64,000 nucleotides of DNA from an uncultured bacterium (GTDB taxonomy: Bacteria; Patescibacteriota; Minisyncoccia; Phycocordibacterales; PALSA-1337), in NCBI GenBank assembly GCA_963701025.1, contig OY969557.1, positions 442,042 to 506,041 of the forward strand. The letters run 5' to 3'. The position numbers and the translations under genes were made by a program. Below are positions 1,063 through 41,594 of the stretch, in pieces. Each line of letters begins with the position of its first letter. Position 1 is the stretch's first letter. The notes under the pieces are model-generated. The model was not told the DNA's origin. It made no database searches and worked only from the letters and a program-made list of their open reading frames with translations.

Positions 1063-2677
1063 ATGACCGCAAAAAAATATTTTATCTACACCAGAAAATC
1101 TACCGACACCGAGGATCGGCAAGTCAGAAGCCTTGCCGACCAGCTCTCCGAGCTGCGCGAGCTCGCCAGAAAGGAGCAGATCGAGGTCATGGATACCTTC
1201 ATTGAGAAGCAGACTGCCAAGATTCCTGGTAGGCCAGTATTCGCGGAGATGTTAGAGCGTATAGAGGCCGGCGAGGCCTCCGGTATCCTCGCTTGGCACC
1301 CCGACAGGCTCGCTCGCAACTCGGTTGATGGAGGAAAGATCATCTACTTAGTGGATACTGGGCATGATCACAGACCTGAAGTTCCCGACATTCTGGTTTG
1401 ATTCGACACCACAGGGTAAATTCATGCTCTCGATCGCTTTTTCACAGTCGAAATATTATGTCGACAACCTATCGGAAAATGTTAAGCGCGGTTTCCGCCA
1501 GAAATTGAAGAACGGCATCTGGCCACAGAAGGCTCCGATTGGATATTTGAATGACAAAAAGACCAAGCTCATCACCATTGACCCCGATAAGGCTCCTCTG
1601 ATCAGGAAAACCTTCGAGGCCTACGCCACTGGCACATATACCCTCTCCGGATTGCGTAAGGCTATGGGCGAGCTTGGTCTCACAGGTCACGGTGGCAGAG
1701 ATCTTTCCATTTCAAACTACCAGTATCTTCTCAAAAACCATCTCTACTACGGCCTCATATATTTCCATGGAGAGTTTTGGGAGGGCAAACATGAGCCCAT
1801 CATCACAAAGAAGCTGTATGACACGGTTCAAGAGGTCATGACGCATAAAAGCAAGCCTCAACATGAGGGAGGATTGAAACCATATGTATATCGCGGACTA
1901 TTCAAGTGCGCCGAGTGCGGATGTTGCATCACCATTGAGACCAAGAAAGGTCATAACTATTTGAGATGTACAAAGCGCAAAGGACCATGTTCGCAAAAGT
2001 ATGTCCGCGAGGAGGCTATGACTGATTTGATCAAAGAGGAACTGAAGAAAGTATCTTTGTCTGATGCTGTAGCAGATTGGCTCATCGCAGAGGTTGAGAA
2101 AGACCGCGCCATAGACGACAATTCATCGAAAAACCAGATTCAGAAGGTCAGTGACGACGTTGTGGCAATCAACACTAAGCTCGACAAACTCATGACGGCG
2201 TACCTTGAAAACGCTCTCACACTAGAGGAATACCAGACTACCAAGAACAAATTAGTGACCGAAAAGCAGATTTTGAAGGATAAACTGGCATCTTTCGGGC
2301 GGGTCTCGACCAGTCGGTTCGAACCGGTCATCGATTTCCTAAACGACTGTAGACAGGCCGGTATTTTGGCGGAAAGCACGGATGCGGCGAAAATTCGCTC
2401 ATTCTTCCAAAAAGTCGGTTCGAACCCACTCGTCCGCGACCGCGCCCTCGTTTTTTCGCCTCGGGCACCCTTCGCCTTCGTCACCCAAATCCCCAAAAAC
2501 ACCAGCAAAGAAGCGGGCGGGGCGGAAGGGGGGTTTCAGGGGGGAATTCCGCCCCGCCCTCCGCACGTGCGATGCATCTCGCCTTTTTCGGGCGATTTTG
2601 AGTTTTCTGAAAAATTGCTGCGGGACTTGGACTCGAACCAAGATAACATCCTCCAGAGGGATGTGTCCTACCATTAG
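1063..2677 (+). CDS. large serine recombinase (resolvase domain + recombinase domain + zinc ribbon), frameshifted near 1380; 3' end uncertain
   Basis: N-terminus YTRKSTDTEDRQVRSLADQ ... LAWHPDRLARN is a serine recombinase catalytic domain. It continues in the +1 frame as ITDLKFPTFWFDSTPQGKFMLSIAFSQSKYY plus a CxxC..C zinc ribbon. The ORF tail overlaps the antisense tRNA-Gln and is probably spurious beyond about 2480. Confidence 0.8.
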
Positions 2678-2688
2678 ACGATCCCGCA
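2618..2688 (-). tRNA. tRNA-Gln(CUG)
   Basis: Cloverleaf with a U1:A72 pair, a G73 discriminator, a GGTTCGAGTCC T-arm and anticodon loop CUCUGGA. Confidence 0.85.
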
Positions 2689-2758
2689 AAATGGAAAAGT
2701 GCACCTTGCAGAATAACCCAAAAAGAGCTATAACACAATAAACCAACAAGGAGGACAA

Positions 2759-3370
2759 ATGATCGAAACTATTGAAACGACAGCGCTCTCGCCGGAGAGC
2801 GTCATTGAAAGATTGGCCCAGGCCAAAGTGCGCACCGATAACTGGGGCAAGCGCCCAGGAACAAAATCTCTCGAAGAATTCATCGGGTACTGTCAGACGG
2901 GCGAATACGAGCTTGATGACGACGGTGACATATTGAAAGTCCGGGTGAATGTCGCCACGGCCTTCGTGCGTTGTATCATCCTCCCCCGCCTATGGGAAAT
3001 GTACGAGGACGGGAGGTATCGGGTCGACACCCACGTGGCCAATCGGAGGAACCGGTTCGAGGGCAGCGTGGCGGCTCGCATACGAACCCTCTGGGGCGAG
3101 GACGCGGAGGGGGCCATCCGCCGCGGGATCGCCAAAGAGCTTGGCCCGATGGAACCTCGGTTCGAGGATCCGAACGAATACGAGCTCCGGTACGATCGTG
3201 AAGAATCAGTGAACGCGGTGGGCGCGGAGGGGTTTCCCGGTATTCCCGCCACGTACCTTGTCCGACGGCATGTCTGCATGGTCCCTCCCGACATGTGCCA
3301 CCGCAGGCATATTCTCGCTTGCGATGATGGAACTGCCATCGTGTTCAAATGGAACGAAATGAGGATGTGA
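2759..3370 (+). CDS. hypothetical protein
   Basis: Strong SD (AAGGAGG, 6 nt spacing). 203 aa. No recognisable motif. Confidence 0.6.
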   Translation: MIETIETTALSPESVIERLAQAKVRTDNWGKRPGTKSLEEFIGYCQTGEYELDDDGDILKVRVNVATAFVRCIILPRLWEMYEDGRYRVDTHVANRRNRFEGSVAARIRTLWGEDAEGAIRRGIAKELGPMEPRFEDPNEYELRYDREESVNAVGAEGFPGIPATYLVRRHVCMVPPDMCHRRHILACDDGTAIVFKWNEMRM

Positions 3371-3445
3371 TCGGCGGCTCGACACGGTATCCCATCGCTA
3401 TCGGAGCGGCGGGATTTTTTTATTCCCGTATGCTAGCATGGCTAT

Positions 3446-3994
3446 ATGAGATATTTCATCGGTTGCCATATCCGCGGCGAAGCCGCCGAATATTACAAAG
3501 CCACCTGCGCCGACTTGGCCGCCCGCTTCGGCGTCGAAGACGTCTCGGCCATCGTGCCGCCGCATATCACCGTCAAAACAGCCTTCGAAAGGCCGTCAGT
3601 GGAGACCGTCGACGACGTGGTTTCTCTCATCGCCTCCGCGTCTCCGGCCCATTCCATAGGGCTATCAGGGTGGAACCATTTCGGAACGCGCACCATATTC
3701 ATCGACGCTCCGGCCGCGCCGTCGGAGCTCAAGGGTCTCGTTGATGGCCTCCTCGGTAAGCTCGAGGGCGCCGGCATCGCCATCTCTCCCCAGGACCGGG
3801 CCTTCCAGGTGCGCCTGTCCGTGGCCCGCTTCCTCAAGCCGAAAGAATGCGAAGATATCTGGCGCCATCTCCAGTTATCGCCCGCGCCGAAATTCGATCT
3901 GTCGTTCGACAATCTGACCATATTCGTCAAAGAGAACCGTGACGACAAGGCCTGGAAGATATTGAAGACTTTCCCGCTCATGGGGAAGAAGTAG
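3446..3994 (+). CDS. 2H phosphoesterase superfamily (LigT-like) protein with degenerate second HxT motif
   Basis: First motif PPHITV is present. The LigT 'HITLAR' position reads RLSVAR (H->R). Size (182 aa) is typical for LigT. Confidence 0.5.
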   Translation: MRYFIGCHIRGEAAEYYKATCADLAARFGVEDVSAIVPPHITVKTAFERPSVETVDDVVSLIASASPAHSIGLSGWNHFGTRTIFIDAPAAPSELKGLVDGLLGKLEGAGIAISPQDRAFQVRLSVARFLKPKECEDIWRHLQLSPAPKFDLSFDNLTIFVKENRDDKAWKILKTFPLMGKK

Positions 3995-9565: not shown

Positions 9566-9641
9566 TGGAGCCAAAGCCCGGGATCGGACCGGGGACCTTC
9601 GCTTTACGAAAGCGACGCTCTACCAACTGAGCTACTTTGGC
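9566..9641 (-). tRNA. tRNA-Thr(CGU), CCA encoded
   Basis: GCCAAAGTAGCTCAGTTGGTAGAGC...CTTTCGTAAAG (anticodon CGT)...GGTCCGATCCCGGGCTTTGGCTCCA. Confidence 0.85.
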
Positions 9642-10087
9642 ATCATTTTCATCAACATGCGCCCTTCCAAGATTCTACTACTAACAACTCTATCAACGCG
9701 ACCATACCCCTTGTTTGACCCTCCATACGTAGGGGTAAGAGAATCGCAATTTGGACACAATAACCTGAGATTATTTTCAATGTTATTACGCCAATTGCCA
9801 TCTATATGATCGGCCACAAGGGGAACTATACCAGTTTTTATGTTCATAATCGACCACCCACATAAGACACATCTATTATCAAACTTCTCACGTAAATATT
9901 TCTTAACATGTACCGAGACAGTGCCGATGCTACTTAAACCGCTGACTTCACCCGATTTCCATCTCTTAATGTATTCTCTGCGCTGGAATTCCTGTTGACA
10001 GGTATTGCTGCAGTATTTGTACGCAGCTTTAGCGGGTTCTCCGCCACAGACGAGACATTTCATTCTTATTTTCTTAGGCATTGGCAT
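9632..10087 (-). CDS. free-standing HNH endonuclease (151 aa)
   Basis: CxxC...CxxC zinc-knuckle pairs plus a [25 protein letters not shown] core. Sits between the two tRNA-Thr genes and overlaps the 5' end of tRNA-Thr(CGU) by about 10 nt. Confidence 0.75.
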
Positions 10088-10139
10088 AATGCCGAGTATA
10101 TCTAATCTATGAAACCCCGTCAAAAAATAATTTCTATTG

Positions 10140-10405
10140 TGGAGCCGTTGATCGGGATTGAACCGATGACCTCGCCATTCGTTTACACCTCTCCTTACGG
10201 GAGGACTAGACTGTATCTTTCTCCGCCTATCGTGGAGACCCTTGTCAGTCGTTCGGGCGCTATGCATAGCAAGCGCCACGGTCTTATCCATCGATAATAC
10301 GTCGGACTTTAACCGTTATTCGGGATTCACATATATGTTACCAAGTATGTGGGCAGGGTCTTACGACCTACCAATGGCGTGCTCTACCAACTGAGCTACA
10401 ACGGC
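10140..10405 (-). tRNA. tRNA-Thr(GGU) interrupted in the anticodon loop (after U36) by a 190 nt intron
   Basis: Exon 1 (10370-10405) is GCCGTTGTAGCTCAGTTGGTAGAGCACGCCATTGGT. Exon 2 (10140-10179) is AATGGCGAGGTCATCGGTTCAATCCCGATCAACGGCTCCA. Together they give a canonical 76 nt tRNA. Confidence 0.7.
10180..10369 (-). ncRNA. candidate group I intron (no ORF) in tRNA-Thr(GGU)
   Basis: The 5' exon ends in U and the insert ends in G (omega-G). There are GNRA hairpins (GGUC-GUAA-GACC; CUCC-CGUAA-GGAG). The stretch AAGAUACAGUCUAGUCC resembles the group I S element/P7 (UAGUC) with a partner GACUG. Confidence 0.5.
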
Positions 10406-10470
10406 ATGATCTGGTTTAACTACCAAAACAGCTACAACGGCATTTTACTTTAAAAATAAAAGAACTTCTG

Positions 10471-41350: not shown

Positions 41351-41423
41351 AACATCGAACCTGAATTTCATTCCATTGTTGAGCCACTTATGGAGTGAAT
41401 ATTTGCCGTTTCTACCAAGTTTG

Positions 41424-41497
41424 TCCGCCCTCTTGGATTCGAACCAAGGACCGCAGAGGTATAAGCTCTGTGCTCTAACCAACTGAGCTAAGGGCGG
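41424..41497 (-). tRNA. tRNA-Ile(UAU)
   Basis: Anticodon loop CUUAUAC. GGTTCGAATCC T-arm. Acceptor stem CCGCCCT/AGGGCGG. Confidence 0.75.
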
Positions 41498-41594
41498 CTA
41501 TCTATAGCGTTCGCTTATCATAAGTCAAAGACCCTTCATACACAACTGCGGAGAACAAAAAGCCGCACCATGGTGCGGCGGCGGGAAGAAACTC

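Follow-up and report, generated by a model that had tools for sequence, protein, structure and literature searches.

The stretch of DNA considered here (64 kb of contig OY969557.1 from an uncultured member of the Patescibacteria, called the window throughout) carries, between two threonine transfer RNA (tRNA) genes, a free-standing gene for a protein of 151 amino acids (aa), which is predicted to be an HNH nuclease made of a zinc ribbon and a PF01844-like HNH core. We interpret its open reading frame (ORF), with moderate confidence, as a homing-type HNH cassette residing at the 5′ edge of tRNA-Thr(CGU), and the comparative evidence supports the view that the gene bears the genomic hallmarks of a mobile element of the homing type. 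It belongs to a widespread and probably mobile family whose members, in Patescibacteria and cyanobacteria as well as in phages, lie directly ahead of a tRNA gene, nearly always that of tRNA-Thr. An earlier reading of the window, made from its letters alone (the sequence-only reading), had also seen a free-standing homing-type HNH gene here, which our results support, and had further suggested that it mobilizes a neighboring intron, which they do not. Free-standing HNH genes in tRNA flanks are known from phages T5 and T4 and are apparently undescribed in Patescibacteria, and full-text searches brought up no account, for Patescibacteria or for cyanobacteria, of HNH genes linked as a family to tRNA-Thr; what is new here is the chromosomal, Patescibacteria-wide occurrence of a kind of gene known from phages.

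The strongest evidence is positional and comes from a very large set of relatives. A word-index search returned more than 1,490 homologues of the window protein at E ≤ 1e-3, the best 120 of which share 62–86% identity with it, are almost all about 150 aa long and come from Parcubacteria-type metagenome genomes, so that the 151-aa ORF is not a chance reading frame; the exact look-up of the window protein found no record. An exhaustive search gave 10,496 clusters (at 50% identity) at E ≤ 1e-3, many of them with N-terminal extensions, and 129 clusters at E ≤ 1e-30. Scanning one genome per species recovered at least 569 relatives, and 80 loci (designated by L and a number) were examined in detail. 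tRNA-Thr adjoins the HNH gene in all 80, immediately downstream and on the same strand in 75 and immediately upstream in the other five. The anticodon of the downstream tRNA-Thr is CGU in 67 loci, belonging to Patescibacteria and Chloroflexota, and UGU in eight cyanobacteria (Floridaenema, Argonema, Phormidium and Oscillatoria). The ORF overlaps the tRNA in 37 of the 80 loci, and 25 of these share the exact register of the window, in which 10 nucleotides (nt) are common to both and the stop codon is formed by nt 8–10 of the tRNA; among the 12 other overlapping loci, 11 read further into the tRNA and one overlaps it by a single nt. Elsewhere the ORF stops 1–166 nt before the tRNA. In three loci (L002, L003 and L076) a tRNA-5′-like remnant is fused to the end of the HNH ORF and is followed by a complete tRNA.

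The same residence is found in viruses. IMG/VR holds at least 556 relatives with 36–57% identity. Eighty of them were examined: 72 have a tRNA no more than 400 nt away, typically inside a phage tRNA cluster, and for 34 of the 80 this tRNA is a tRNA-Thr. Half of the dereplicated IMG/VR relatives have a same-strand tRNA starting between −45 and +200 nt from the ORF stop, and the 10-nt overlap register recurs in phages with Thr, Arg, Lys and Val tRNAs. Among GenBank phages the family is commonest in T5-like coliphages and Salmonella phages. Both traits of the homing endonucleases of phage tRNA clusters, i.e., a location between tRNA genes with an abutting or overlapping 3′ end and homology to a member of the group, are seen in the window gene.

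In an alignment of 20 homologues, C11/C14, C26/C30, C73/C76, C111/C114, D93-H94, N102, N106, N113 and D115 are invariant, and it is because of the two invariant cysteine quartets and the D93-H94...N102...N106...N113...D115 series that an N-terminal zinc ribbon is predicted, followed by an HNH core that contains zinc and falls into the PF01844-like clade. The zinc-ribbon region gave weak treble-clef/YacG-like profile matches. The core has the features of the beta-beta-alpha-metal fold of HNH/His-Me finger nucleases, with the catalytic His, the Asn and the metal ligand in place, the motif reading H-N-D. In a hidden Markov model search of the kind that the sequence-only reading had advised, Pfam HNH_3 (PF13392) reached 13.8 bits and HNH (PF01844) 12.9 bits, below their cut-offs of 24.8 and 21.4, while the HNH families of PHROG matched strongly (phrog_1271, E = 3e-19). 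Structural comparison placed the catalytic core nearest to the HNH domains of the McrA/Cas9/Gme type and not to I-HmuI, and an identity of the I-HmuI/HNH_3 type was rejected. These zinc-containing domains form a clade of His-Me fingers that includes PF01844 and also phage homing enzymes (PMC5714182). A sequence search of solved structures returned ScoMcrA alone (E = 0.76), and NCBIfam returned weak HNH-domain matches to IscB and ZorE and nothing more. An RNA-guided, IscB-like nuclease was rejected given the size of 151 aa and a likeness confined to the HNH domain, and so was a tRNA-targeting element of the integrase type, as there is no integrase and it is the 5′ end of the tRNA, not the 3′ end, that receives the insertion.

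Presence and absence of the gene at one defined site point to mobility. Four related loci with the same tRNA synteny lack the HNH gene: L143 and L096 share with the window gatA, a 219-aa ORF (up219), the tRNA cluster and the pair of intron-bearing tRNA-Thr(GGU) and tRNA-Thr(CGU), with prfB beyond the latter in L143 and the contig edge reached in L096, and L083 and L140 share the tRNA cluster. The same polymorphism exists in phages, where T5 provides the empty site: it has the same flanks as the phage vB_EcoS_HdH2 (HdH2; NC_048748), in which a homologue is present, and only 10 nt separate T5.059 from tRNA-Thr. The history of the HNH gene is moreover uncoupled from that of its flanking genes. 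Across 54 loci the pairwise HNH identity averages 65% (range 54–91%) and that of the adjacent prfB spans 44–89%, and the two are unrelated (Spearman rho 0.008 over 1,431 pairs; Mantel rho = 0.02, p = 0.35 in 52 loci), whereas the tRNA shows no such relation to the HNH gene but weakly tracks prfB (Mantel rho = 0.13, p = 0.004). The nearest relative by prfB (L064, 82%) has an HNH protein just 57% identical to that of the window, located after rather than before tRNA-Thr(CGU) and accompanied by an intron-less tRNA-Thr(GGU) (1948–3465). The HNH gene is AT-rich relative to its host: its guanine-cytosine (GC) content of 41.7% compares with 52.7% in the window as a whole, and the 54-locus averages are 0.41 for HNH and 0.50 for prfB. 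Taken together with the vertical inheritance seen among the closest relatives (below), these data are those expected of an element that passes from parent to offspring for some time but, on a longer time scale, is replaced or transferred. As separate observations, L064 also has an opposite-strand ORF between its two tRNA-Thr genes, and the order of tRNA followed by HNH recurs in L033.

The following results weigh against mobility by homing. The last metal-ligand His of the core is replaced in the patescibacterial clade by an invariant Asp (D115, window positions 9743–9745, minus strand; CPNCD), while phage relatives retain the His (CPNCH). HNH GC content correlates with that of the host (r = 0.77), and most copies would therefore have resided in their hosts for long, or their movement would be confined to hosts of similar composition. 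At 78–82% DNA identity (HNH 83–86%), the closest relatives all keep the order Met-Met-Asp-Thr(GGU)i-HNH-Thr(CGU)-prfB (i denoting the intron), indicating vertical inheritance at that scale, and the flat HNH identity of about 65% could partly reflect saturation rather than transfer. No correlation indicative of co-conversion of the flanking tRNA with the HNH gene was found, and tRNA-Thr(CGU) from 67 HNH-plus and 12 HNH-minus loci showed no diagnostic difference that could mark a target or immunity. Searches of the empty-site spacers at the protein and DNA level revealed no decayed HNH remnants, tRNA-like fragments only. The ORFs are instead uniformly intact, with about 65% identity and many invariant columns across hundreds of species, a picture that does not correspond to the late decay of homing endonucleases and could reflect a role beneficial to the host.

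Upstream of the ATG the cassette carries a predicted promoter of its own, and column conservation disappears beyond about −58. A −10 element of the form TAnnnT ending 5–8 nt before the ATG is present in 50 of 53 patescibacterial loci (mean of 7.6 and maximum of 13 in shuffled sequences), and the −35/−10 pair TTK...-16-18-TAnnnT in 34 (shuffles: mean 1.3, maximum 4). The predicted promoter of the window ends 7 nt before the ATG, which implies a leaderless messenger RNA (mRNA) from the presumed start. The −35 element of the HNH promoter is bracketed in 28 of the 53 loci by a palindrome, RACCW-N10-22-WGGTY (shuffles: mean 0.3, maximum 3), exemplified by CAACCACT...AGTGGTTG and lying at about −55 to −25 in L005, L006, L019, L042, L062, L138 and others; this palindrome, which the window copy does not have, may be an operator. 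Scanning the minus strand of the window from the ATG to the tRNA found no other promoter-like site and no terminator. Because the ORF, whose translation terminates in ...MMPK*, overlaps the tRNA, the HNH gene and tRNA-Thr(CGU) must be co-transcribed, and a cut by ribonuclease P (RNase P) at the tRNA 5′ end would consequently strip the last two codons and the stop from the message. The window also encodes a transfer-messenger RNA, which could handle such non-stop HNH messages.

In the reading that we favor, the cassette begins some 58 nt before the ATG and extends into the beginning of tRNA-Thr(CGU). It has its own predicted sigma-70-like promoter, from which the mRNA would be leaderless, and its frame ends in U8-A9-G10 of the tRNA. 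It belongs to a large family colonizing tRNA 5′ flanks, not only in the tRNA clusters of phages but also in the chromosomes of some bacteria, where the tRNA is almost always tRNA-Thr. In the mechanism that we propose, the enzyme would nick or cut cassette-less alleles at or near the tRNA-Thr 5′ junction, and recombinational repair from a cassette-bearing donor would copy the HNH gene in; in the long term this would result in turnover and horizontal spread, in the short term the cassette would be inherited vertically. Processing of the co-transcript by RNase P would remove the HNH stop, and full-length protein would thus derive from unprocessed transcripts only, a control that may act as a brake on a potentially toxic nuclease, as proposed for T4 segB and for the T5 enzymes (PMC2330249).

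A different explanation is that the cassette has been domesticated, i.e., that it is kept in Patescibacteria for the benefit of the host, either as the promoter of tRNA-Thr(CGU), in which case its deletion would silence the overlapped tRNA, or as a nuclease acting on invading DNA with tRNA clusters such as that of phages. We consider this rather unlikely, although a host-beneficial role stays a live rival since no decayed HNH copies were found in the empty-site spacers. The intact ORFs in at least 569 species genomes are under strong purifying selection, the conserved promoter and palindrome (28/53 loci against 0.3 expected) suggest regulated expression, and the GC content of the HNH gene is partly ameliorated towards that of the host. 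The promoter variant is in line with the lack of a separate promoter-like site for the tRNA inside the ORF and with the AT-rich, −10-like sequence that HNH-less alleles carry directly upstream of the tRNA. The distribution is nonetheless patchy, with empty sites in the same synteny; host divergence does not predict HNH identity, and in the closest relative the gene is found at another position; in the tRNA clusters of phages the homologues come and go as optional genes typically do; and no defence gene or other partner neighbors the HNH gene.

Along the same lines a wider reading can be sketched, which we regard as unlikely when taken as a whole. The HNH family would reside at tRNA 5′ edges across phyla and viruses, borrowing its stop from U8-A9-R10, and in Patescibacteria it would have turned from a mere parasite into a regulated companion that stays with tRNA-Thr(CGU) semi-permanently. 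The leaderless promoter and the palindromic operator may then regulate this companion, which could supply the promoter of the overlapped tRNA, making the cassette hard to lose, and whose nuclease could be directed at the tRNA-gene clusters of invading phages.

On the other side of the HNH ORF lies tRNA-Thr(GGU) with its ORF-less intron. The Rfam model Intron_gpI scored 16.3 bits on this intron against a gathering score of 50; the family inserted between nt 36 and 37 of tRNA-Thr(GGU) has already been described, and its poor detection by Rfam is known (PMC13011429). As Rfam is nearly blind to these introns, the structure was tested on an alignment of 74 sequences, in which 73 form a P1 whose 5′ splice site is marked by a U.G pair and compensatory changes affect 42 of 64 helix pairs. 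Helices P2, P4, P5, P6, P7 (GACUG/CAGUC), P8 and P9 were assigned by their order and by a conserved J8/7-like AAGAUACAGUC; the intervening sequence is a genuine group I-type intron.

The sequence-only reading had pointed to collaborative homing, with the tRNA-Thr anticodon region as the likely target. Under such a model the HNH enzyme would cut intron-less tRNA-Thr(GGU) at or near 36/37, and the intron would protect its own allele and ride on co-conversion. The 52 nt that separate the two genes invite such a view, as do the precedents of F-CphI with the psbA intron (PMC6083498) and of mobE with I-TevIII (PMC2790892), and 12 of the 21 HNH-linked tRNA-Thr(GGU) genes (57%) carry the intron, compared with 3 of 95 complete Patescibacteria genomes, which are not a matched baseline (PMC13011429), so that a modest enrichment of the intron near the HNH gene may exist. 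A survey of related genomes, which the same reading had suggested as a check, showed no consistent linkage from either side. The intron lies within 3 kb of the HNH gene in 12 of the 80 HNH loci. Nine HNH loci have an intron-less tRNA-Thr(GGU), which in seven is directly upstream of an intact HNH gene, and some of these alleles match intron-bearing ones at the site: for about 33 nt that of L029 is identical to the junction which splicing would leave in L014/L019, and for about 29 nt those of L062/L052 agree with L063. An intact HNH gene beside a site-matching intron-less tRNA-Thr(GGU) is hard to reconcile with cleavage of the 36/37 site, and the proposed target is thus not supported.

From the side of the intron, 80 loci were recovered when metagenomes were scanned for its core motif CGAACGACTGACAAKGG, and 60 of these extend at least 1 kb downstream. 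An HNH gene follows in one of the 60 (L138); in two further cases a copy is truncated by the end of its contig or lies on the opposite strand next to tRNA-Thr(UGU). Eight of the 60 have tRNA-Thr(CGU) within 1.5 kb downstream and no HNH gene. Full-length homologues of the intron also occur outside tRNA genes in 26 IMG/VR contigs (L290–L315; nhmmer E values down to 1e-26), and in none of these was this HNH gene found near an intron copy; L305 (6287–7715, the same as L086) has three copies in a stretch of about 1.4 kb, which follow a scaffold-like gene and seem to split a structural gene. A 2026 mSystems survey of tRNA introns in Patescibacteria took into account intron-encoded endonucleases only (PMC13011429). 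What stays constant beside the HNH family is the tRNA-Thr(CGU/UGU) downstream of it, even in those cyanobacteria and phages that lack this intron. Given the weak linkage from both sides, the intron persists and spreads without the HNH gene and the HNH gene without the intron, and mobilization of the intron by the HNH protein is very unlikely. The position of the HNH gene beside a tRNA intron looks coincidental, and the intron-containing tRNA-Thr(GGU) is a neighbor within the Met-Met-Asp-Thr-Thr cluster of this lineage and not a part of the HNH cassette.

Some further observations concern interrupted tRNA genes and the intron motif. About 12 of the 80 metagenome motif loci have no recognizable tRNA around the motif, and L313 is one of the viral contigs with an intron homologue outside tRNA genes. 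In L029 (65–367) a tRNA-Asp(GUC) contains a different, group I-like intron of 227 nt, about 2.6 kb away from the HNH gene, consistently with the tRNA-Asp introns reported in PMC13011429. In L080 (2548–3321; Clostridiales UBA7001) a distant HNH relative, 57% identical over residues 24–130, lies about 145 nt after a tRNA-Thr(UGU) interrupted by an unrelated intervening sequence of 232 nt; in the 80-locus sample this is the sole other case of an HNH gene with an interrupted tRNA-Thr outside Patescibacteria.

That the protein is a McrA-like (type IV) restriction enzyme or another non-specific HNH nuclease located by chance between tRNA genes, an outcome that the sequence-only reading had named as speaking against its own view, is most improbable: the core does resemble McrA, yet the similarity is limited to some 70–90 residues of HNH core, the 151-aa protein does not have the N-terminal modified-DNA-recognition domain that precedes the C-terminal HNH domain in such enzymes, the clade also holds phage homing enzymes (PMC5714182), and restriction genes are not marked by so extreme a preference for the 5′ flank of tRNAs, held to in different phyla and in phages alike.

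The features of the locus are collected in Table 1. On the minus strand the order is tRNA-Met, tRNA-Asp, intron-bearing tRNA-Thr(GGU), the 151-aa ORF, tRNA-Thr(CGU) and prfB. The position and make-up of the zinc-finger and HNH ORF, its distance from the intron-containing tRNA and its overlap of about 10 nt with tRNA-Thr(CGU), all of which had been noted in the sequence-only reading, were correct; the 52 nt between the CCA end of tRNA-Thr(GGU) and the ATG follow from the tRNA boundaries set by ARAGORN in intron mode. An extended ORF of 219 aa starting from 10291, which would run into the tRNA and the intron, was rejected as spurious because the homologues begin with MP(M/N)PKK and the conserved −10 element lies 5–8 nt before that ATG. 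No further HNH copies were found within the 64-kb window.

Table 1. Positions of the HNH gene, its parts and the neighboring tRNA genes in the window.
Feature	Position	Strand	Basis or remark
HNH endonuclease ORF, free-standing (outside any intron or intein), 151 aa	9632..10087	−	sequence and translation, homologues, PHROG HNH, HNH fold
N-terminal CxxC...CxxxC zinc ribbon (C11, C14, C26, C30), presumed DNA-binding module	9998..10057	−	cysteines invariant; function presumed
HNH (beta-beta-alpha-metal) catalytic core: C73/C76 ... D93-H94 ... N102/N106 ... C111-P-N-C114-D115	9743..9871	−	
Overlap of ORF 3′ end and tRNA 5′ end, 10 nt	9632..9641	−	stop TAG = nt 8–10 of tRNA-Thr(CGU)
tRNA-Thr(CGU)	9566..9641	−	constant downstream partner of the HNH family
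Predicted sigma-70-like promoter TTGACG-17-TATACT, ending 7 nt before the ATG	10095..10123	−	promoter scan and conservation in related loci
tRNA-Thr(GGU) with 190-nt ORF-less group I intron	10140..10405	−	ARAGORN intron mode
Intron	10180–10369	−	between nt 36 and 37 of tRNA-Thr(GGU)
Degenerate partial copy of the tRNA-Thr(GGU) 5′ end (GCCGTTGTAGCTgttTTGGTAG)	10420..10441	−	14 nt upstream of the real gene
tRNA-Asp	10544–10470	−	window gene order
tRNA-Met	10685–10608	−	window gene order

Besides the degenerate tRNA copy of the window, five related loci (L083, L140, L096, L143 and L105) hold between their two tRNA-Thr genes partial pseudo-copies of tRNA-Thr(CGU), and the same spacers also contain duplicated pieces of the intron 3′ end and exon 2; these partial copies look like recombination scars at a hotspot. 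Elsewhere in the window a tRNA-Ile with the anticodon UAU, an uncommon bacterial isoacceptor, is encoded at 41423–41497 (minus strand), for which ARAGORN in intron mode offered an alternative, overlapping tRNA-His with an 82-nt intron (41423–41578) that is probably an artefact.

The analysis corrects an attractive yet unsupported story of intron mobilization and brings forward in its place a very large unnamed family, with more than 10,000 clusters at 50% identity. Its noteworthy traits are the strict rule of the tRNA-Thr flank across phyla and phages, the use of tRNA nucleotides as a stop codon, and a conserved promoter, predicted to give a leaderless mRNA, with its palindrome. The tRNA 5′-flank habit ties the tRNA-cluster endonucleases of T5-type phages to chromosomal genes of Patescibacteria, cyanobacteria and Chloroflexota, and for annotation it accounts for hundreds of "hypothetical proteins" beside tRNA-Thr. 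If these enzymes recognize tRNA-gene sequences, they could be a source of new site-specific nucleases, and the cassettes could also mark DNA exchange in lineages with tiny genomes, while the overlap between ORF and tRNA makes it easy to test whether a selfish gene can be controlled through the processing of a tRNA.

Among known systems, the cyanophage pair of F-CphI and the psbA intron and the T4 pair of mobE and the I-TevIII-defective intron resemble the window in that a free-standing endonuclease gene adjoins a group I intron with no ORF or a defective one, but in the present family this adjacency is no general trait (12/80 and 1/60 loci) and intron-less alleles lie directly beside HNH genes. 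T4 SegB is a GIY-YIG homing endonuclease whose gene stands free between T4 tRNA genes; in the related phage T2L the enzyme cuts preferentially within the gene for tRNA-Asn, and maturation of the downstream tRNA parts the segB ORF from its stop codon, a proposed limit on expression (PMC2330249). The logic of the ORF/tRNA overlap in the window is the same, although SegB belongs to an unrelated catalytic family and acts in phage co-infection, and its activity and homing have been demonstrated, whereas those of the window gene are predicted. Phage T5 encodes the F-Tfl HNH endonucleases hegA–hegE (Akulenko et al., 2004, as cited in PMC2330249 and PMC10644984), whose genes lie within the tRNA cluster (PMC2330249) and which are regarded as mobile homing endonucleases (PMC2330249; PMC10644984) and held responsible for differences between T5-like genomes (PMC10644984). 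Like the window gene these are free-standing HNH genes scattered among tRNAs, and the ORFs of hegC and hegD overlap the 5′ end of the downstream tRNA. The catalytic core of HegA shares 57% identity with the window protein over 40 aa (E = 8e-13); no significant similarity to it was found for hegC, hegD and hegE, nor for SegB, and the F-Tfl proteins differ in size (171–228 aa), in their DNA-binding modules and in their phage context. The closest named homologue of the predicted window protein is of the type of HdH2 gp177, 36% identical over 124 aa (E = 6e-26), which shares the CxxC...CxxxC zinc ribbon and an HNH core with a CPNC(H/D)..TPT tail and is likewise encoded directly 5′ of a tRNA-Thr, its stop having one base in common with nt 1 of the tRNA. 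It is a phage gene for 130 aa with tRNA-Thr(UGU) as partner, and it keeps the final His that is Asp in the window; annotated just as "HNH endonuclease" and experimentally uncharacterised, it has relatives in the tRNA regions of Tequintavirus and Epseptimavirus. Functionally, the closest counterparts of the window gene are the free-standing endonuclease genes of phage tRNA clusters, T5 F-Tfl and T4 SegB.

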